Of a stretch of DNA of 64,000 bases, positions 8,824-53,367 are shown piece after piece. The DNA is from Candidatus Micrarchaeota archaeon (GTDB taxonomy: Archaea; Micrarchaeota; Micrarchaeia; Micrarchaeales; Micrarchaeaceae). The DNA is taken from positions 71,142-135,141 of the forward strand of contig DAHXMI010000004.1 in assembly GCA_027365565.1 (NCBI GenBank). The letters are read 5' to 3'. Under the pieces are notes generated by a model, which was given only the letters and a program-made list of their open reading frames with translations, made no database searches and was not told where the DNA came from. The number at the start of each line of letters is the position of its first letter. Within the stretch, counting starts at the first letter, position 1. A program made the position numbers and the translations under genes.

Positions 8824-8896
8824 AGCTCCATCGTCTAGTGGTCAAGGACGACAGGCTCTGAACCTGTAAACCCCAGTTCGAATCTGGGTGGAGCTA
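8824..8896 (+). tRNA. tRNA-Gln (anticodon CUG)
   Basis: Hand-folded. Acceptor AGCTCCA/TGGAGCT. D-stem GTCT/GGAC. Anticodon stem ACAGG/CCTGT with loop CTCTGAA. T-arm CCCAG-TTCGAAT-CTGGG. Discriminator A. A1:U72 is typical of archaeal tRNA-Gln. Confidence 0.85.
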
Positions 8897-9026
8897 CTTA
8901 TACTTTGGTTGGGTCCGCTTCCGCATTCCGCGCTCTTGGATTGCAGGAGGTGCACGCAGCAAAAGCCCGTACTTATAACGGCATGGTTTTTTATATTCAT
9001 AATGCATGGTTAATTTAGGCGAGCAG

Positions 9027-18044: not shown

Positions 18045-18433
18045 ACTATGAGTTTTGCGTTCTTCGCCTTCAAGGCCTCCGCGAGGGGGACCAGGCTGCA
18101 GTTCGCCTTCTTCAGCTCTTTCCTTGCCGATTCCGAGAGCTCCATCGCGGCTATGCTCACCTTGTGGTCCATCGAGCCTATCGACAGGACCTTTCCGGGA
18201 ACTATGACCGCGTCGCCCTCCTTCGTGCTTCCGTTTATCCTGAATATGTTGACGCTTGGCCTCTGCCTTGAGGGCTTGCCAGCGAACTTGTATATCCTCT
18301 TCGAGAGGCCTGCGCGCTCCTTTGAAGAGCGCATCGCCTCAAGCTCCGCAAGCCACTTAACTACTACATCCTTTTCCGGTTGCTTCCTCATCAGCTGCAC
18401 CTTTCCTTTGCGGAGGGTGAGATTTGAACTCAC
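18041..18433 (-). CDS. rpl18e: 50S ribosomal protein L18e (eL18)
   Basis: PGKVLSIGSMDHKVSIAAMELSESARKELKKAN is characteristic of eL18. It sits at the conserved position between rpoD and L13. Confidence 0.8.
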   Translation of the reverse strand: MSSNLTLRKGKVQLMRKQPEKDVVVKWLAELEAMRSSKERAGLSKRIYKFAGKPSRQRPSVNIFRINGSTKEGDAVIVPGKVLSIGSMDHKVSIAAMELSESARKELKKANCSLVPLAEALKAKNAKLIV

Positions 18434-18502
18434 GCAGTCACTAAAGACACTGACCCCTCAAGCCAGCGCATTTGGCCGGGCTCTGCCACCTCCGCGTGAA
18501 TC

Positions 18503-29803: not shown

Positions 29804-30676
29804 ATGGCTGATGGCATAGCCTCCAGGCTGGGTGCCAAAAGTGCGGTCATTCACAGGAAAACATTCCCTGACGGCGAGCACTATCTGCAGGTAAGAGATA
29901 GTAAAGAGAAGGATGGCACCGCCGTACTCGTGTGTTCGATGTACCCGGACCAGAACGACAGGTTTCTCGACATACTTCTAGCGTCTGACGCGCTGAGGAG
30001 GTCAGGTGCGGCGGAGATATTGCTTACAGCGCCATACCTGTCCTACGCAAGGCAGGACCGAATTTTCCTTGATGGCGAGGCTCTGTCCGCCAGCGTCGTG
30101 GGCGGCGCATTCAGAACCGCAGGCATATCGAAGGTACTTACGGTAGAGGCGCATAGCAGGGAAGCGCTGGCGGCGTTGGGCGTGGAAACGGTCAATATAA
30201 GCGCCGAAGCGGAGATGGCAGGGTTTCTGAAGGGGGGCGGCACTGTTCCCGAAGTAATCGCTGCGAGCGATATGGGCACGTACGCCCGCGCAAAACGAAT
30301 CGCAGATTCCATCGGCGCGGAATTGATTGCGTTCGAAAAGGAGAGGGACAGGCATACAGGAAAGGCCACGTCTACTCTTAGTACGGACGTCAACCTGGAA
30401 GGCAAGGCAGTGACGCTGATCGATGATATGATAAGCTCAGGGGGCACGATAATGAATGCCGCAACAGAGATACTGCGGCGCGGCGCGAAGGAGGTGAACG
30501 CGCTATGCGTGCATGCCCTTCTTGTGGGCAATGCCGAAGAGAAATTGAAAGGCTGCGGCGTGAAGAGCATTTCAGGCAGCAACAGCATAGAGAACAAGTT
30601 TGCCGCGTACGACGTGGGCGAAGCGATAAGCAGGAGGATAGGGTCAATTCGGCAGATGCAGGAAGCGGGCGTGTGA
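29804..30676 (+). CDS. prs: Ribose-phosphate pyrophosphokinase (PRPP synthetase)
   Basis: PRPP-binding loop DDMISSGGTI and N-terminal NTP-binding region present. I chose the start at MADGIASRLG so it does not overlap the convergent gene. The track ORF 29543..30676 has an implausible 87-aa extension. Confidence 0.85.
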   Translation: MADGIASRLGAKSAVIHRKTFPDGEHYLQVRDSKEKDGTAVLVCSMYPDQNDRFLDILLASDALRRSGAAEILLTAPYLSYARQDRIFLDGEALSASVVGGAFRTAGISKVLTVEAHSREALAALGVETVNISAEAEMAGFLKGGGTVPEVIAASDMGTYARAKRIADSIGAELIAFEKERDRHTGKATSTLSTDVNLEGKAVTLIDDMISSGGTIMNAATEILRRGAKEVNALCVHALLVGNAEEKLKGCGVKSISGSNSIENKFAAYDVGEAISRRIGSIRQMQEAGV

Positions 30677-30726: not shown

Positions 30727-31014
30727 CTACCTGTTTTCGAATGGCATATTCTGTATAGGGCATGTAATATAACCTATGCCCTGCTTGCACCGACGCTCCT
30801 TCCTTGCCGCCTCGGATATTGCCGTGCTGTCCCTATCAACACCCACGGCTTTTATCCTAGGATCCTTGCTTTTGAGGACTCTTAGAAACGCACCATTTCC
30901 ACATCCTGCATCCAATACCCTGCCTTTTATGAGTTTGGCAGCACTGCTTGGAGAGGAGACGAACCTTCTTGCATCTGCAAGATACCTGATCCTTTCTTTC
31001 CTTATGTCTCTCAT
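30727..31014 (-). pseudogene. Truncated class I SAM-dependent methyltransferase remnant (motifs I to III only, 95 aa)
   Basis: VLDAGCGNG (motif I), GVDRD, IQNMPF. It ends after motif III with no room for the C-terminal half before prs. Confidence 0.45.
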
Positions 31015-31038
31015 TACGAAACTCCTATTAAAGCCATG

Positions 31039-31500
31039 TTAGTCTTTCAGCTTTACACCAAATTGCCGTTCGTAATTTATTTTTTCTTCATATGTTGGTT
31101 TCCTTAATAGGTGTATAACATCTTTTACAGGTATTTCTTCGATATTTACATATGTGACTGGTTCGCTTGAAACCCATTGTCTTTCTCCTCCACTCTGACG
31201 AAACGTATTGCTGGAGAGCTTGTATACATATATTTGCTCCTGGGCGGGCCAACCTTCATAGGCGATTCCTTGAATTGGTGTTTTATCATAATAGAGGCCC
31301 CCACGCACCATACCTACACATTTAACTAGGGCCATGGCTATCGCAATGTCTTTATTATCCGATGCATAGACCCCAACCTGCACATTTTCTGGAACATTCC
31401 TTATATCCCTACCTTTTCTTGGCAAGAGCATATCTCCTTCTATCTTCTTGGGAGAGCCATGCCATAGGTATTTTGATTTTTCTTCCATACACTCAACCAC
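31039..31500 (-). CDS. Hypothetical protein; possible minimal ADP-ribosyltransferase-fold / Tpt1(KptA)-like catalytic domain
   Basis: YLWHGSP (H-G-S/T motif), GVYASDNKDIA (Y-[AF]-[AS]-D-like), and an AYEGW...IYVY segment. The similarity to ART/Tpt1 motifs is weak and taken from memory. Confidence 0.3.
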   Translation of the reverse strand: MVECMEEKSKYLWHGSPKKIEGDMLLPRKGRDIRNVPENVQVGVYASDNKDIAIAMALVKCVGMVRGGLYYDKTPIQGIAYEGWPAQEQIYVYKLSSNTFRQSGGERQWVSSEPVTYVNIEEIPVKDVIHLLRKPTYEEKINYERQFGVKLKD

Positions 31501-31539
31501 GAAGTTATGATTATATGTAAATTTTGTGATTTGGAATAT

Positions 31540-32361
31540 TCAGAGAAGGAAACTTTTGTATTTTGTGCTCTTCAACGTATCCCAAATAGTCTGCTTGCTT
31601 ATATTTTTGCTGTAATCTTCTGCGATTTCCATTAGATTATCAAAGTCGAATAATTGGCCGCGATGAGAAGACCTTATTTCGCCTCTTATTTTAGTAAGAG
31701 AAGTGTGACGTTCGATTTTGAGTTCCTTACTAATAATACCACGAGGGGTAAAATATCTTATTAGCGCTTCTTCGAAAGCCTTTGCCCCGTCTTTACGGTA
31801 ATCAAGCCTTTTGCTCTTAACCATCATGATGTGCATTAGTTCATGGACAAACTTGTCTATGATGTCATTGTTTTGAAGATCTTGTGGTATACTTAACCCA
31901 ATAATTGGGGGGTCATACGCAAGATTTATGCCTTGTGATGTTATTGCTCTATATAATTCGCAAAGAACCACATTAACTGACATTGGAAGGGTAAAATCAA
32001 ATATCCTTTTTATTAAATCGCTTAGTTCCCCTTCTCTACTTTCCATAAATTTTTCTATCACAAGTTTAGATTTCTCGAACCTAATATCATTTTTGTCTAT
32101 TAAATTGATAGAAAATAAATCGAGCAACTTTTTCAGTTCAGGCGCTTTAGTATAGTCTTCGTTTAAAGCATAGTTATACAATTTAAGCGCAGACGAGTGA
32201 CTTGGTTGATTATGCAAGTAATAAAATAAGTTATACCCTCTGTTGAAAAGGTCTCCAAAAACTTGCGGAAAATGGAGCAGTGTTATCGGTAAATTTCCGT
32301 ACATATGGTCAGTGATAAAAATTTTCCTGATGTCGTTCTTTGTCGTGAATGTAAGTTGCAC
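31540..32361 (-). CDS. Putative zinc metallopeptidase (HExxH...E)
   Basis: The motif FVHELMHIMM is followed by EEAL about 25 aa downstream, a gluzincin-like arrangement. The family is unassigned. Confidence 0.45.
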   Translation of the reverse strand: MQLTFTTKNDIRKIFITDHMYGNLPITLLHFPQVFGDLFNRGYNLFYYLHNQPSHSSALKLYNYALNEDYTKAPELKKLLDLFSINLIDKNDIRFEKSKLVIEKFMESREGELSDLIKRIFDFTLPMSVNVVLCELYRAITSQGINLAYDPPIIGLSIPQDLQNNDIIDKFVHELMHIMMVKSKRLDYRKDGAKAFEEALIRYFTPRGIISKELKIERHTSLTKIRGEIRSSHRGQLFDFDNLMEIAEDYSKNISKQTIWDTLKSTKYKSFLL

Positions 32362-32372
32362 TTCATCACTAT

Positions 32373-33356
32373 CTAAGATTTTATTTTAATTTTCGCCTTT
32401 ATAGATTCTTCCTTTCTTATCAAGTTTTCTGTAGTACATTGGCCTACGCTTGTCCTTAAATTTAGATAACGTTCTCTCGACTTATTCCATATTTCTTTCC
32501 ATGTTTCTTTGTATAGGTTACCGACATTAACATTTCTCAGAAGCAAACACGGCGTTACATTACCGTTTACTAAAACCCCTGCTCTTAGTAATCCAGCAGA
32601 ACATGATTTAAATTCGTACCTGCTTATCAGTGGTTGCTCTTCACCCAAAGTGGTACAATCCAACTTTACTCCTCTTATCAATAAATCCTTATTTTGCTTC
32701 TTAATCTCCTCTGCAATTTTATCATGCAACTCCGACATACTATTATAATCAATTGCCAGGTTACGAAATTCCCTTGGTGATAGAGAAAAGGTGGGTTGTA
32801 GTATTTCCAGATTAAATGATGTTAAATTTTCGTATGATAGTAACTTTCTCGCAGTATTTAGTACGTCAGTATAATTTGCTGATGTAACAACAATACCCAC
32901 GTTAAATTTGATATTGTTTTTTTCTAAAATCTCGATCCCTTTTAATGTTAATTCGCCAAATCCTCTATTTATATTATTTATCTCCGGATTGATGCTATCT
33001 AGCGAAATCTGTATAGCTATGCCTGCATCATCCGTTATGTTTTTAAGCCTAGCAATACTTTCTAAGGATAATTTATGAATCAGAGTTCCGTTTGTACTTA
33101 TTCCGATGCTACTATGAAATTTTTCTTTTGCAAATTCTAGGATGTCTAATATGTCTTTTCTTACGAAGGGCTCACCACCAAGCAAAATTAATTCAAATGG
33201 GTTGGCCTCTCTTTTCGTTTTATCTATTAAGTATTCTATATTGTCTAGTGGAGGTATAATGTTTTTAAAGGGTTTTGCAAAACAGTAGTTGCAACTAAGA
33301 TTACAAACACTAGTTACCTCTATTTCGACCCTGAATGGATATTTAGGAACAATCAA
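32373..33356 (-). CDS. Radical SAM enzyme with C-terminal twitch/SPASM-like auxiliary-cluster domain (peptide/protein-modifying family)
   Basis: CNLSCNYC (CxxxCxxC), GGEPF, STNGTL. C-terminal CSAGLLRAGVLVNGNVTPC (C-x12-G-x4-C) plus a further Cys (GQC). Confidence 0.8.
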   Translation of the reverse strand: MIVPKYPFRVEIEVTSVCNLSCNYCFAKPFKNIIPPLDNIEYLIDKTKREANPFELILLGGEPFVRKDILDILEFAKEKFHSSIGISTNGTLIHKLSLESIARLKNITDDAGIAIQISLDSINPEINNINRGFGELTLKGIEILEKNNIKFNVGIVVTSANYTDVLNTARKLLSYENLTSFNLEILQPTFSLSPREFRNLAIDYNSMSELHDKIAEEIKKQNKDLLIRGVKLDCTTLGEEQPLISRYEFKSCSAGLLRAGVLVNGNVTPCLLLRNVNVGNLYKETWKEIWNKSRERYLNLRTSVGQCTTENLIRKEESIKAKIKIKS

Positions 33357-33367
33357 AAAAGCACCAA

Positions 33368-33775
33368 TTATTTGTCAATCCTTAACACTTCCAAAATGTT
33401 AGGATTTGTCTTCTTGATTGACGCTATGTCTCTTTCCAGTAGGCCACTTAGAACGGTAGTGGCTGCTTCGTTCGCATAATATATACCACCTGTCCTAAGG
33501 TTTCTAACAAACCCGTCACTTCTTACGTTGATGAGGCTTTTTAAAGCAGGGTTCTCCGCCTTTATGCTGAGCATACGTAAATCGTTTTCCTCATCATCAG
33601 GATAATTGCTTTTTCCATCATAGTCAAACCATGCCCCTAGTAAATCATCCTTGTGGACACTAGTGTACTCCTGACTCGGGGAATACGCATACGGGACTAT
33701 CACAGGCTTGTCCGATGCAAGAGCCTTCTCTATTTCCTCTGTTTTCAGTGCTTTCTTTTCCAACCTTGTCTCCAT
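33368..33775 (-). CDS. Protein with C-terminal PqqD-like (RiPP recognition element-like) motif
   Basis: GGIYYANEAATTVLSGLLE resembles the PqqD (G)xxxLNETAAxI(W/L)ELxDG motif. The N-terminal ~80 aa are acidic/aromatic-rich. Promoter-like box upstream. Confidence 0.35.
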   Translation of the reverse strand: METRLEKKALKTEEIEKALASDKPVIVPYAYSPSQEYTSVHKDDLLGAWFDYDGKSNYPDDEENDLRMLSIKAENPALKSLINVRSDGFVRNLRTGGIYYANEAATTVLSGLLERDIASIKKTNPNILEVLRIDK

Positions 33776-33801
33776 GTCACCACTATAATTTATTCTGTTC
33801 C

Positions 33802-33814
33802 ATAAATTTAAAAA
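33802..33814 (-). promoter_or_regulatory. TATA-like box (TTTTTAAATTTAT on the minus strand) about 30 nt upstream of the island cassette
   Basis: It is an A/T box at the appropriate distance from the ATG at 33775. Confidence 0.4.
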
Positions 33815-33914
33815 GGTCGTGCTGGGATTCGGCAGTTGTCGAAAACAGGATGGACAGAGCTCACGCTAAGGCCTTTTTCAAAAGAAAAAAGAAAGATCAG
33901 AGAAGAGATTCGCA

Positions 33915-36750
33915 GATTAGACTTTAGTAACGGTATGTTCGCAGCTCGCGTGAGCTCGCTGCTTACGCACCCGTCCTATCAAAGCCGTCTATTGCGGCCG
34001 TCCTAGTGCCTCGTTTCGGGTAGGGCTTCGTCCTTAGATGCTTTCAGGGCTTATCCCCTTGGCGCGTGGCTACCCGGCAATGCTTACACAACCGGTAGAC
34101 TAGAGGCGCCGATCCCCCGTTCCTCTCGTATTAAAGGGATCTTATCCTCCGGCACTTACACTTCCAGTAGTTACTACCGTACTGTCTCGCGACGTACTGA
34201 ACGCAGCTCACGTGGGTTTTTAATGGACTTCAGTCCAACCCTTGGCTGCTTGTGCACAGCCAGGATAACCCGAGCCCATAACGATGTATCGAACCGCCGG
34301 GTCGATGTGGACTCTTACCGGCGACGAATCGGTTACCTCTAGAGTAACTTGTTTGGCAGACTGGAGCCCCATTAAAAGAGCTACCAGCGATCACATAAGC
34401 CCCTCTTTCGAGTCTGCGCCCCATGCTTTTAGAGGCACAGTCAGCCCCGCATTTGCCTTTATGTTTGAGGGCGGGTTTCCAACCCGCCTAAGCGGAGCAT
34501 AGGACACCTTCGTTTCTTTATAGAAGGCAGCCGTCCAGCCCAACTACCCACCTGCAGCTGTTCCTCACGGTTAGCCACGAGATAAGCTAAGAGTGGTGTT
34601 ACATTGTCGCTCCGCGCGCGCCGCAGCGCGCGCCTCGACGCTCCCACTTACGCTATGCATAACACATCTCATGACAACTACAGGCTGTAGTAAAGTTTCA
34701 TAGAGTCTTCTTTACCCACTGGAAGATCGCGGCATATTCACCGCGTAGTGAGTTCACCAGATCCAATGTTGGGACAGCAGGGGGATCGTTACGCCATTCA
34801 TGCAATCCGCCACTTAAGCGGCTAGGTATTACGCTACCTAAAGAGAGTCAGAGTTACTCCCGCTCTTTGCCAGCGCTTACTCCCGTTGAAACGGGTATTC
34901 ACGTACTGGCGGTGAGCAGGCGTCACCCACTGTACTTAGCGTTTCCGCTTTGCGGTGAGTTGTGTTTTAGATAAACAGTCGTCCCCCTCTTGTCAGTGAC
35001 ATCTGCGCTTCCTAAACGCAGACATGGTTTGTAGAAAACATACACCACTAATTTGCCGATTTCCCTAACATCGGTTATTCTGACACACCTCGGCCTTTTC
35101 AGCCAGCAACACTTTTAATAGATCTAGGTACGGACTTGTGTGATCGTTGCGGATTCCCTTTTCACGGGATCAGGAATTCAGTCCAAGTTCATTTAGTCGC
35201 TTCTCCTCATAACGAGACTCCACGACCATTTGCACGTTCTTTCGGACCTATCCCCAACCGTCAGAAATCTGCCTTGCGTTGCCGCTCCTACACACAAGGG
35301 GCAGGAATATTAACCTGCTTCCCTTTTGCTGCACTGTGGTTGGCGTGCAGCTTAGGATCGCCTAACCCTCCGCTGACAAGCGTTGCGAAGGAAACCGTGT
35401 GCTTAAGGTGTACGGGATTCTCACCCGTATTGGATATTACTAACACCAGGATATTCTCTGCGATACGGTCCACACGTCCTCTCGAACGTGCTTCTTGCCA
35501 TACCGCACGCCATCTTACCTATGCTTTCGCATATCGGGGTCTCGGTACCTGATTTAGCCCCGTATATCTTGAGCTGGAAGAATCTCAATCGGTCCGCTAT
35601 TACGCGTTGTTTAAAGGGTGGCTGCTTCTGAGCCTACCTCCCGACTGTCTATGAAACTTCCGGCCTTTGACACACTCAATCAGGATTTTGGGACCTTAAC
35701 CTCGATCACCGTCGTTCCGGTCTCGCAATGTTGGCTTACCCAGCATTGCCGACTCCAAGGGTCTACACAGCACGTGCATTCGGAGTTTGACAAAGAGGGG
35801 AGGCCTCTCGACCCCTTACCTCCTAATCGGTAGCTCTACCTCACGTGCAAGCTCGCCTTGAGCTATCCTAAAGATACTTCAGATGGGACCCGCTATTGCC
35901 ACGCTCGAATGGTTTATCGCCGCTACCCGCAGCTCGCCCAACAGGTTATACCATGACAGGTGGCGGACCTCCACCAGGCGTTAGCCTAGCTTCGTCCTGG
36001 CCGCGCGTAGTTCGCAGTGGCTTCGGGTCGTATAACAGTGACTTTGGCATTTTCATACCATGCGCCTCGTCTAGGACTGCGCGCTATCGCTTTCGCTCCG
36101 CCTTTCGGCTCGCCACTACCATACACTCCCTGGCTCTTGCTTCAAGAAGAATGATAAGACACTGGTCCATGCGCCTCGCTGGACGCTTTCGCGTCCTAGC
36201 TTCGGCACACTTCTACCCTTTCGTGCCTTACCTGCTTGTAACTGCCTAGTTTCAGATCTGATTTCACCCGCACGCGTGTGCGTTCTTTTTAACTTTCACT
36301 CACGCTACTCGTACGCTATCGGTCTATAGTCAATATTTAGGGTTGGGGTTTAATGCCCCCGTATTCGCACCGAATAATCAGCCGGTACTACTCGCTGCAG
36401 CTATCGCCAACACACTTAACCTACGAGGCTGTCACTCTCTATGGCCGCGCTTTCCAACGCGATCGGCTCATGTGCTGGCTGAATATCGCTACACCACATC
36501 TCCGTACCTTTTACAAGGACGGATTCAGTTCGCCCTGTGCGGCTTTCATTCGCATTACTTACCGCATCGAATGCTCTTTCTTTTCCTGCGGGTACTAAGA
36601 TATTTCAGTTCCCCGCGTGCGCATGCCTGCTTACGCAGGCACAATTCGGCAATCCCGGGTTCAAAGCCTGACTTGCGGCTACCCCGGGCTTATCGCAGCT
36701 TGCCACGGCCTTCATCGCTACTATAGCCTAGTCATCCCCTAGGCAGCTTA
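33915..36750 (-). rRNA. 23S (large subunit) ribosomal RNA, standalone (no linked 16S/5S within the window); ends approximate
   Basis: Conserved LSU blocks on the minus strand: GCAAGCUGCGAUAAGCC near the 5' end (+36700 region), CUGAAAGCAUCUAAG near the 3' end (+34040 region). The flanks can pair as a processing stem (GCGAATCTCTYCTC at 33896 to 33910 and 36765 to 36780). Confidence 0.9.
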
Positions 36751-36912
36751 AATTTTGCGAATCTCTCCTCCTCACATCAATCATGCAAACAGCACGATAT
36801 CACAAAGATTGATACTGCTCAATGCCAAGCTTTCAAATGCAGAAGCATAAAAAGATCAGGCTTCAGCATGTCATGGGCATAAGAGCACCGCAATATATTG
36901 AAGCAACAAGGT

Positions 36913-53192: not shown

Positions 53193-53295
53193 GGGTAGAA
53201 GTAAAGCCTAAAGCTACCAGAAAGTGAACCTACTCCGCTTTTTATACTACTCCACGATATTAAACTTGATATTATGGGAGCGTTCGAGAAAACTG

Positions 53296-53367
53296 TGGAC
53301 TCGGCGGGATTCGAACCCGCGACCCCCCGCTTGCAAAGCGGGTGCACTACCCCTGTGCTACGAGCCC
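53296..53367 (-). tRNA. tRNA-Ala (anticodon UGC) with G3:U70 identity pair
   Basis: Acceptor GGGCTCG/CGAGTCC. D-arm GCAC-AGGGGTA-GTGC. Anticodon stem CCCGC/GCGGG with loop TTTGCAA. T-arm GCGGG-TTCGAAT-CCCGC. Discriminator A. Confidence 0.9.

Follow-up and report, generated by a model that had tools for sequence, protein, structure and literature searches.

An AT-rich island beside the 23S rRNA gene of a Micrarchaeota archaeon carries a candidate RiPP-like modification system whose precursor may contain its own recognition domain

The window analyzed here, a stretch of 64,000 nucleotides from a Candidatus Micrarchaeota archaeon, contains a low-GC island at about 31.0-33.8 kb that lies beside an archaeal LSU (23S) rRNA gene (Table 1). 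By composition count, the GC fraction is 0.364 at 31039-33775 against 0.524 in the remaining window, which bears out the GC drop next to the 23S 3′ end that a preliminary description of this DNA had reported. The four tightly spaced, co-directional genes that it had placed inside the island are likewise present as minus-strand open reading frames, here called A to D, with GC fractions of 0.426, 0.335, 0.353 and 0.405, respectively. Genes A and B are separated by 11 nt, B and C by 11 nt, and C and D by about 50 nt; a methyltransferase fragment follows D after a further 24 nt. The start of gene A, at 33775, is 130 nt beyond the 3′ end of the 23S gene. About 30-37 nt 5′ of the A start codon we read an A/T box, TTTTTAAATTTAT, that is a candidate archaeal TATA element; if it functions as one, the cassette would own its promoter downstream of the 23S gene. 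A sigma-70 promoter scan is not relevant to archaea. When related loci were compared, the same cassette was found in other archaea amid unrelated neighbourhoods. The AT-rich island was thus probably imported horizontally, an origin that had been proposed earlier and that is consistent with both its composition and these unrelated neighbourhoods.

Table 1. Features of the island and its border, listed in the direction of transcription (positions are those of the window).
Feature	Position	Strand	Description
LSU (23S) rRNA gene	33906-36764	-	archaeal
A/T box TTTTTAAATTTAT	33802..33814	-	putative archaeal TATA element
Gene A, 135 aa	33368..33775	-	proposed precursor-plus-recognition protein
A residues 24-37, PVIVPYAYSPSQEY	33665..33706	-	conserved N-terminal motif
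A residues 38-76	33548..33664	-	variable aromatic/acidic middle region
A residues 77-135	33371..33547	-	C-terminal part, proposed RRE-like docking/recognition module
Gene B, 327 aa, TTG start	32373..33356	-	radical SAM enzyme, proposed maturase acting on A
B residues 18-25, CNLSCNYC	33282..33305	-	CxxxCxxC, binds radical SAM [4Fe-4S] cluster
B residues 252-307, C252-x12-G265-x4-C270 ... C307	32436..32603	-	twitch-type auxiliary cluster site
Gene C, 273 aa, GTG start	31540..32361	-	zincin-fold HExxH metalloenzyme
C residues 173-177, HELMH	31831..31845	-	metal-binding motif
C residue E198	31768-31770	-	candidate third metal ligand
Gene D, 149 aa (ATG) or 153 aa (GTG at 31500)	31039..31488	-	orphan
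Methyltransferase fragment, 95 aa	30727..31014	-	class I SAM methyltransferase, N-terminal part only

Gene D contains the H-G-S and Y-A-S-D strings for which it had been called ADP-ribosyltransferase (ART)-like (WHGS, with H10 in the 149-aa form, and GVYASD, with Y41), together with the string EQIYVY. Its only Pfam match is DUF6886, at E 0.004 and below the cut-off; NCBIfam, PADLOC, PHROGs, phages and plasmids gave nothing, and no ART family or solved ART was matched in Pfam, NCBIfam, PADLOC, PHROGs or the PDB sequences. The strings suggest that D is possibly a small ADP-ribosyltransferase, and a precedent for ART tailoring exists in MicD, a small ART that modifies a triceptide (PMC12912966). 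We place D outside the conserved cassette because none of the related loci examined contains a homolog, and whether it belongs to the system is uncertain. In the methyltransferase fragment, matches to Methyltransf_25, Methyltransf_31 and Methyltransf_11 cover only the first ~60 profile positions; the reading frame stops at TAG-TAA-TAG, leaving about 50 nt to the Prs gene that converges on it, and its GC fraction of 0.476 lies between island and host. It is either an island-edge remnant or a decayed tailoring gene. D and the fragment appear to be local additions of uncertain relevance.

Gene B encodes a radical SAM enzyme with an auxiliary cluster domain. It matches PF04055 (Radical_SAM) at E 1.2e-18 and 68.2 bits (cut-off 29.5), and PF13186 (SPASM) at E 1.3e-8, over the Pfam cut-off, with profile positions 1-52 of 67 covered. 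Among 20 family members, C18, C22 and C25 are invariant, and the only invariant auxiliary cysteines are C252, C270 and C307. The CX2CX5CX3C part of the full SPASM seven-cysteine motif is absent from B; since only three auxiliary cysteines are invariant, we assign the domain as a twitch-type half-SPASM. The Pfam matches and invariant cysteines thereby substantiate the twitch/SPASM domain and the C-x12-G-x4-C motif recognized earlier in B. The closest solved relative in a PDB search is the RiPP maturase SkfB (E 1.1e-18) and not MoaA or BtrN, in line with the earlier grouping of B with RiPP enzymes, and in a full-length alignment the three auxiliary cysteines of B align with the SkfB twitch cysteines. 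SkfB carries an RRE at its N terminus (residues 12-105), followed by the radical SAM and twitch domains, and forms a Cys-to-C-alpha thioether (PMC6231123). B shares the radical SAM core and twitch domain, aligning to SkfB residues 108-390, whereas the RRE and the thioether chemistry set SkfB apart; judged by this alignment, B has no RRE of its own. Thioether chemistry is ruled out at this locus because the window's A has no cysteine.

About 20 close B homologs share 38-52% identity, and all named ones are archaeal. None of the 20 family members reaches a curated NCBIfam family cut-off, and B itself scores far below all of them. The best curated-model matches of B include the RiPP maturases ScmE and WgkB, with WgkB second-best at 80.7 bits (cut-off 650); DynA scores 48.8 (cut-off 450), and the match between B and the radical SAM domain of ChlB is only E 6e-4. 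By these scores, B belongs to no characterized cyclophane-synthase family (XyeB, ChlB, WgkB, DynA and similar). The heme enzymes AhbD and NirJ are equally close to B in the curated models.

The small protein encoded by gene A accompanies B. With a family HMM, an A homolog is found as the gene immediately 5′ of B in all 9 loci of the set (E 1e-12 to 1e-55), and L176 is a tenth locus with this arrangement. The A-B loci, all with the upstream flank present, are the window and L006/7, L008/9, L010/11, L092, L093 and L172-L176, while an A homolog was found in none of about 160 unrelated radical SAM loci. A travels with B wherever the upstream flank is present, which upholds the pairing of a small protein with a radical SAM enzyme put forward previously, and the A-B gene pair is the conserved core of the cassette. 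The preliminary description had found no precursor-peptide gene, and a six-frame search of 30.6-34.0 kb agrees: no free precursor ORF exists in any frame outside the coding genes. Nor does any small ORF recur next to A or B across 11 loci (the window and ten related ones). The lack of any transporter or immunity gene counts against a RiPP-like reading.

A family proteins are 122-208 aa long, and searches of Pfam, NCBIfam, PHROG and PADLOC gave no family match for A. Three parts can be distinguished in the protein. The N-terminal motif PVIVPYAYSPSQEY has the consensus (V/I)-x-P-Y-x-x-x-P-(D/S)-Q-E-(F/Y/W), kept in alignments A1, A4 and A5, and AlphaFold predicts a strand at residues 26-30 within a block of pLDDT about 80; we propose that residues 24-37 may form a leader or recognition strand. 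The C-terminal part is the best-conserved portion of A. Here AlphaFold predicts three strands (82-84, 89-92 and 98-101) followed by three helices (103-112, 117-123 and 125-130) in a block of pLDDT 76-89, and this predicted secondary structure agrees with the RRE criterion of PMC12710340. We therefore regard residues 77-135 as a putative RRE-like docking or recognition module. A had been called PqqD-like on account of a motif that indeed sits at the beta3-alpha1 position, the site of the PqqD L-N-E-T-A motif. This positional likeness and the predicted RRE secondary structure stand, but a sequence match to PqqD or an RRE does not: neither A nor the 10 family members searched gave a PF05402 (PqqD) match with E up to 1, the A profile found no RRE among PDB sequences, and hhalign of A against a PqqD-domain protein gave E 0.39. 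A also departs from PqqD in the size of its domain, only about 59 residues, and in the leader-plus-core-like segment of ~75 residues that precedes this domain in the same protein.

Between these two parts lies the variable middle region, which in the window's A holds W49-F-D51, Y52-D-G54 and Y58-P-D60. Across 12 family members, an aromatic residue in the middle region is followed two positions later by Asn, Asp or Gln in 42 of 64 cases, compared with 16.0 +/- 3.2 in shuffled sequences (z 8.1; reached in 0 of 5000 shuffles), while neither other offsets nor the N-terminal parts of A are enriched. The region ranges from 27 to 99 aa across the family, and one close pair of A proteins is 31% identical in the middle and 85-86% in the flanks. 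The triplet WDN recurs 3-4 times in A proteins from several archaeal lineages. Triceptides are defined by an Omega1-X2-X3 motif, an aromatic followed by any residue and then by the one that is crosslinked, in which radical SAM enzymes install aromatic-to-C-beta crosslinks (PMC11499958). The family-wide enrichment fits this motif, as do WFD and YPD in the window's A, with YDG and FDY in addition. We propose from these patterns that residues 38-76 may be the core, the site of modification; the suggestion that the acidic/aromatic part of the 135-aa protein might be the substrate is thus the reading that the triplet enrichment favours. Against A as substrate, WFD and YPD are the only two aromatic-x-N/D/Q triplets in the window's A, and triplets are few in some other members (L010 0/3, L175 1/2).

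Gene C contributes a metalloenzyme. H173, E174 and H177 are invariant among 36 C homologs and E198 is kept in at least 90%, which confirms the HExxH...E pattern noted before. HELMH is in helix 164-183 and E198 in the following helix, 193-204, both preceded by a three-stranded sheet; this is the gluzincin pattern, in which a Glu ligand about 20 or more residues downstream of HExxH sits on the helix that comes next, and a small beta-sheet comes before the motif. None of the 36 homologs matches an HExxH-domain model, NCBIfam and Pfam hold no family match for C, and the peptidase families M48, DUF2268, SprT, M78 and M91 gave scattered single-member matches at E above 0.008, below cut-offs. In structural comparison, C has the fold of its best match, ChlH, an alpha-ketoglutarate HExxH hydroxylase that is fused to the triceptide synthase ChlB. 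C therefore shares the invariant HExxH and the ChlH fold with the alpha-ketoglutarate-HExxH enzymes (IPR026337; ChlH, BpmH, PflC/PosC and PesO), without membership in their sequence model. C had been taken for a leader peptidase; the zincin fold agrees with this, but the best structural match is an alpha-ketoglutarate-dependent hydroxylase, so a peptidase is one of two readings. There is about an even chance that C is a hydrolytic peptidase that would trim or release a crosslinked segment; an alpha-ketoglutarate/Fe-dependent beta-hydroxylase or oxidative cleavage enzyme, like ChlH and PflC, is plausible at slightly lower probability. C occurs in four of the loci, and its occurrence without A-B at L177 counts against the cassette reading.

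We suggest, as an evenly balanced judgement, that the island is a mobile archaeal RiPP-like modification system with a precursor that contains its own recognition domain. The modification of A, its chemistry, the binding of the N-terminal strand in cis and what C does are all inferred, as follows. A would serve as both substrate and recognition module, and B would supply the radical SAM cluster and one auxiliary (twitch) cluster. The N-terminal strand motif would act as a leader that probably packs in cis on the C-terminal domain; its pairing with the C-terminal sheet is suggested by the predicted secondary-structure string alone. The middle loop with its aromatic-x-Asn/Asp/Gln triplets would be the core, in which B would most likely take a side-chain hydrogen from the third residue and link the carbon that carried it to the aromatic ring two positions before. 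The products would be small cyclophane rings, each with a mass change of -2 Da, as made by triceptide, WGK and WPR maturases, and C would act after B. That A is a self-contained precursor, with leader-RRE binding in cis and a loop presented to B for cyclophane formation, is a tentative proposal with somewhat less than an even chance. A precursor fused to its own recognition element is an architecture absent from the RRE survey, and we did not find the arrangement described. An internal core between two folded or conserved parts of a 122-208 aa protein is atypical for a RiPP precursor, which counts against the proposal.

The closest characterized analogue is WprABC, in which three W-P-R motifs are crosslinked by a twitch radical SAM enzyme that depends on WprC, a separate ~100-aa chaperone without sequence similarity to PqqD (PMC11851443). 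WprABC and WgkABC (tryglysin) resemble the A-B cassette in that the radical SAM enzyme (twitch in WprB) lacks an RRE, acts on repeated aromatic-x-X motifs and needs a small ~100-aa recognition/chaperone protein. In WprABC and WgkABC the precursor and the chaperone have a gene each, whereas the leader-like motif, core and recognition domain would here reside in one protein; the third motif residue is Lys/Arg there and Asn/Asp/Gln in A; and the hosts named so far for the A-B cassette are archaea. The triceptide systems (XyeB, ChlB, HtkB and other 3-CyFE maturases) share the Omega1-X2-X3 logic, often with several copies per precursor, and have HExxH partner enzymes, ChlH among them. The other cyclophane maturases compared with WprB carry a SPASM domain with two auxiliary clusters (PMC11851443), whereas B keeps only three auxiliary cysteines. 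Triceptide precursors are short with a C-terminal core, in contrast to the internal putative core of A, and the window and ten related loci hold no separate short precursor gene.

The existence of discrete ~100-aa chaperones that radical SAM cyclophane synthases need, some of them, like WprC, without sequence similarity to PqqD (PMC11851443), gives some weight to the view that A is a recognition/chaperone protein only, an N-terminally extended counterpart of PqqD or WprC, and that the true precursor lies elsewhere or is unnoticeably short or unusual. The conservation of the C-terminal domain and the few triplets in some A proteins point the same way. We nevertheless consider this unlikely, since 11 loci show no recurrent small ORF near A or B, the window offers none that is free, and a mere linker would explain neither why the motif is so strongly enriched at this position nor why the middle varies in length. 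In known systems, moreover, the precursor gene is normally adjacent.

It is improbable that B instead modifies the conserved N-terminal motif (aromatic-x6-Q-E-aromatic), crosslinking or otherwise altering its conserved Glu and one aromatic residue as PqqE does on PqqA, with C excising a small cofactor-like product. E36 is invariant in the A alignments, positions 29 (Y/F) and 37 (F/Y/W) are always aromatic, and the mycofactocin maturase model gives a low-score match to 20 of 20 B family members. However, the variation at positions 29 and 37 does not specify one defined cofactor, the strand predicted at 26-30 suits a recognition sequence better than a flexible core, the triplet enrichment in the middle is left unexplained, and the downstream genes of PQQ or mycofactocin biosynthesis are absent. 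Equally improbable is a non-peptide substrate for B (tetrapyrrole, lipid, nucleotide or sugar), with A as an accessory, scaffold or regulator in a cassette that is not RiPP-like: B does score on the AhbD, NirJ, Tes and MoaA models about as well as on RiPP maturases, Tes, MoaA and viperins come after SkfB in the PDB search, and PADLOC pVip models hit B's radical SAM core at E 5e-21. Such matches, however, are far below family cut-offs and for the most part cover the core that radical SAM enzymes have in common, the best match over the full length, twitch domain included, is a RiPP maturase, an obligate small, variable, motif-rich partner has no counterpart in those pathways, and the neighbourhoods differ from locus to locus and contain no heme, lipid or nucleotide-pathway genes.

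To our knowledge, archaeal ribosomal peptide natural products are poorly charted, and no paper on archaeal triceptides came up in our literature search. If the proposed modification of A by B is true, the cassette would represent, as far as the literature found goes, the first archaea-specific cyclophane-type (triceptide-like) RiPP family, horizontally spread among Thermoplasmata, Marsarchaeota and Parvarchaeum-type lineages. It would broaden the repertoire of known peptide maturases of the twitch radical SAM type, and would bring about 56 HExxH proteins into the debate on RiPP-associated peptidases versus alpha-ketoglutarate oxygenases. If A carries a built-in recognition domain, the two-gene system would be a compact tool for introducing cyclophane crosslinks into protein loops. 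The cassette also illustrates how small biosynthetic gene sets move between very different archaeal genomes.

The GC content of the whole window is 0.52 and dips to 0.32-0.40 at ~30.8-33.8 kb; positions 31039-33775 average 0.364, as compared with 0.524 in the remainder of the window. The preliminary description of a sharp GC drop with four minus-strand ORFs (A to D) following the 3' end of the 23S rRNA gene is accurate by composition, ORF structure and Rfam. A, B and C are separated by 11 nt each. The methyltransferase fragment that follows D ends in TAG-TAA-TAG, ~50 nt short of the convergent Prs gene at the far edge of the island, and its GC content of 0.476 lies between the island and host values. 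ApyS, a RiPP methyltransferase, is one of its weak, generic NCBIfam matches (29 bits against a cut-off of 400), and the fragment looks like a decayed gene at the island edge. Within the 64-kb window, Rfam detected the 23S gene alone and neither a 16S nor a 5S rRNA gene, which indicates that the rRNA genes of this archaeon are unlinked, at least at this scale. Only three tRNA genes occur in the window: Gln-CTG (8824-8897), Leu-GAG (18409-18495) and Ala-TGC (53295-53367).

Features of the AT-rich island and the adjoining rRNA gene (window coordinates)
Feature	Position	Strand	Remarks
LSU rRNA (23S), archaeal	33906-36764	-	Rfam
A/T box TTTTTAAATTTAT	33802-33814		~30-37 nt upstream of the A start codon
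A	33368-33775	-	135 aa ORF
B	32373-33356	-	327 aa ORF
C	31540-32361	-	273 aa ORF
D	31039-31488 or 31500	-	149 or 153 aa ORF
Methyltransferase fragment, class I SAM	30727-31014		95 aa, N-terminal part; after D

The radical SAM enzyme B matches the Pfam families Radical_SAM (E 1.2e-18) and SPASM (E 1.3e-8) and stays below the cut-off of every curated NCBIfam family, its best scores being those for ScmE (87 bits), WgkB (81), AhbD (78) and NirJ2 (75) against cut-offs of 400-650. In a database search, ~20 close relatives share 38-52% identity with B, beyond which identity falls steeply to ~30%; those that carry a name derive from Marsarchaeota, Parvarchaeum and Thermoplasmata MAGs. The invariant cysteines of the family alignment are C18, C22 and C25 (CxxxCxxC) and otherwise only C252, C270 and C307. 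C252, G265 and C270 form the C-x12-G-x4-C auxiliary motif that had been noticed from the sequence, and this assignment as a radical SAM enzyme is borne out by the Pfam matches and invariant cysteines. By this pattern, the auxiliary domain is a twitch-type half-SPASM with a single auxiliary-cluster site. As for the subfamily, the closest solved structure in a profile search is SkfB (E 1.1e-18), a twitch-domain RiPP maturase; B aligns to SkfB residues 108-390, with the three auxiliary cysteines coinciding. Since the RiPP recognition element (RRE) of SkfB spans residues 12-105 (PMC6231123), B corresponds to a maturase core without a recognition domain.

Among the matches listed in a B-profile scan of genome and metagenome contigs, most were generic radical SAM genes and only those at loci L092 and L093 belonged to the B family; neighbourhoods of the family were obtained via exact-protein look-ups of its members. 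A homolog of A lies directly upstream of B in 9/9 loci (family HMM, E 1e-12 to 1e-55), and L176 is a tenth such locus. We left L179 out of this count, as its contig starts 28 nt before B. No A-like sequence was found in ~160 unrelated radical SAM loci serving as a negative control. The conserved unit is A plus B. The preliminary description had found no precursor-peptide ORF, and our small-ORF search likewise turned up none that is free in the cassette of the window; across 11 examined loci, no recurring small ORF adjoins A or B. An anti-phage, viperin-like function of B, suggested by its match to PADLOC pVip (E 5e-21), was rejected, because this match is limited to the shared radical SAM core and leaves the twitch domain and the obligate small-protein partner unexplained.

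Several loci vary on this theme. At L010 (5594-7954) and L011 (5648-7954), one A homolog precedes a tandem pair of B paralogs, both with ~38% identity to the B of the window and with Radical_SAM and SPASM matches, which suggests a two-maturase version of the A-B system. An APH-family kinase gene adjoins on the opposite strand, and another APH gene lies by the lone C homolog of L177. In L172 (6006-6926, minus strand) and L174 (3435-4358, minus strand), both of which lack C, homologous ~306-aa proteins (28% identity, E 6e-24) adjoin A-B on the opposite strand in very different hosts (57% and 30% GC). They match no Pfam family; G-x-x-H strings near both ends presumably resemble those of the TraB/PrgY/Tiki family.

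Two word-indexed homolog searches for A yielded only 3 and 7 proteins, and in Pfam, NCBIfam, PADLOC and PHROGs none of A, C and D had a match beyond sub-threshold noise. The JGI label "acyl-CoA-binding ..." on P0083, the A homolog of the Marsarchaeota locus L008, has no supporting Pfam domain and is probably a spurious automatic annotation. Members of the A family are 122-208 aa long and consist of three parts: a conserved N-terminal motif, (V/I)-x-P-Y-x-x-x-P-(D/S)-Q-E-(F/Y/W), in which E36 is invariant; a middle variable in both length (27-99 residues) and sequence; and a conserved C-terminal segment of ~60 residues. Trp/Tyr and Asn/Asp/Gln abound in the middles and keep a fixed register: in 12 proteins, N, D or Q stands at +2 after an aromatic residue in 42/64 cases, whereas 5000 composition-preserving shuffles gave 16.0 +/- 3.2 (z 8.1; 0/5000 reached the observed value), and no comparable enrichment occurs at offsets +1, +3, -1 or -2. 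The same +2 test gave z 0.1 for the N-terminal parts and z 2.8 for the C-terminal domains, the latter probably due to conserved columns such as the Y-A-D of "FYAD". WDN is present in 3-4 copies in A proteins of different lineages (L006, L008, L093), and the window's A contains WFD and YPD, plus YDG and FDY. This pattern is that of the Omega1-X2-X3 motif defining triceptides, in which a radical SAM enzyme links the aromatic ring and a carbon in the side chain of the third residue (PMC11499958). In the homologs P0086 and P0089, the N- and C-terminal parts are 85-86% identical and the middles differ in length and are only 31% identical; judging from these alignments, the middle of this pair behaves as a putative hypervariable core, whereas those of two other close pairs do not. 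Thioether chemistry of the sactipeptide or ranthipeptide kind is ruled out at the window's locus, because its A contains no cysteine.

The proposal that the 135-aa protein A is PqqD-like was rejected at the sequence level: no A member matches PqqD PF05402, the PDB sequence hits of the A profile include no RRE, and hhalign against a bona fide PqqD domain gave E 0.39. An AlphaFold model of A built from 10 sequences has a mean pLDDT of 70, rising to 76-89 in the C-terminal part, where strands 82-84, 89-92 and 98-101 are followed by helices 103-112, 117-123 and 125-130; Foldseek found nothing with this model. A confident strand (26-30) lies within the conserved N-terminal motif, and apart from it only the C-terminal sheet contributes strands of more than one residue; the simplest reading is that the motif pairs with that sheet. 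Leader peptides pair with beta3 of RREs, and we infer from the model that the N-terminal motif of A may dock on its own C-terminal sheet in the same way.

The HExxH protein C belongs to a family of 56 cluster representatives in an exhaustive HMMER search, all ~270-300 aa long, and C matches no Pfam or NCBIfam family. H173, E174, H177, P126 and Y250 show no variation, and E198 is almost invariant, in keeping with the HExxH...E arrangement first described. The AlphaFold model (pLDDT 94) places a three-stranded sheet before the HExxH helix and the Glu helix, a predicted zincin core. In structural comparison, a ChlH-type match has a small lead over true peptidases, with no membership at the sequence level. 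For the activity of C, a peptidase is about as likely as not and an alpha-KG oxygenase somewhat less likely. C follows B in the window, L008/L009, L176 and L179, and occurs without A-B in L177. At L175 (1885-2598; contig 25-30% GC), a 237-aa protein with HELIH lies downstream of B; it is not recognised as a C homolog by blastp or by the C-family HMM, and its sole hint is a weak SprT-like match (E 0.028). The position after B may thus have been filled by recruitment of a second, unrelated HExxH protein.

The orphan D does contain the ART/Tpt1-like strings reported for it (within WHGS and GVYASD), and also EQIYVY. Its sole match is to DUF6886 (E 0.004, sub-threshold), and no relatives were found in PDB, phage or plasmid sequences, nor a homolog in the related loci. 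The small ART MicD (His7, an aromatic at 41, Glu101) ADP-ribosylates a cyclophane-bearing triceptide (PMC12912966), which gives the idea of D as a candidate ART a precedent.

Horizontal acquisition of the island had been proposed from its composition. Cassette GC is also below that of the flanks in L008 (0.342 vs 0.461) and L176 (0.449 vs 0.525), and beyond the A-B pair the loci share no genes: A-B neighbours 23S/Prs in the window, tRNA synthetases and ribosomal proteins in L008, enolase in L006 and two HhH-GPD genes in L176. Lower GC in several hosts together with unrelated neighbourhoods supports the proposal and fits a small mobile cassette. A near-identical Prs gene occurs on one other contig only, which is from the same strain and ends within the methyltransferase fragment, and this comparison revealed no empty insertion site. 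The only flanking repeat found, a 23-nt direct repeat (30647-30669 / 33827-33849; 74% identical, first 9 bases identical, ATTCGGCAG), brackets the whole island, from the Prs end to just before the 23S 3' end. Its position is that expected of an insertion scar, but the repeat may mean nothing, since 3.7 kb should contain ~26 such 9-mer matches by chance alone; we make no claim for an attachment site here. The closest relative of B (52% identity; L179, 29-1872) lies on a contig of 25% GC, so the donor of the island could plausibly be a lineage very rich in AT. In L179 the B stop overlaps the start of the C homolog by 4 nt, suggesting translational coupling, and no D-like gene follows.

B has no RRE of its own. 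We propose that A supplies an RRE-like domain; it also bears a motif resembling a leader and a middle that is variable and rich in motifs, and near A-B no further precursor is encoded. All functional statements on this system are predictions. A precursor-RRE fusion was not described in the broadest RRE survey accessible to us, and our literature search brought up no publication about triceptides of archaea. Among characterised systems, WprABC/WgkABC comes closest: its radical SAM enzyme, of the twitch type in WprB, forms crosslinks in W-x-K/R triplets and needs a separate ~100-aa chaperone, WprC having no similarity to PqqD; the WprB cluster includes six archaeal sequences (PMC11851443). By comparison, the system described here resembles an archaeal version in which precursor and chaperone are fused and Asn/Asp/Gln take the place of Lys/Arg.
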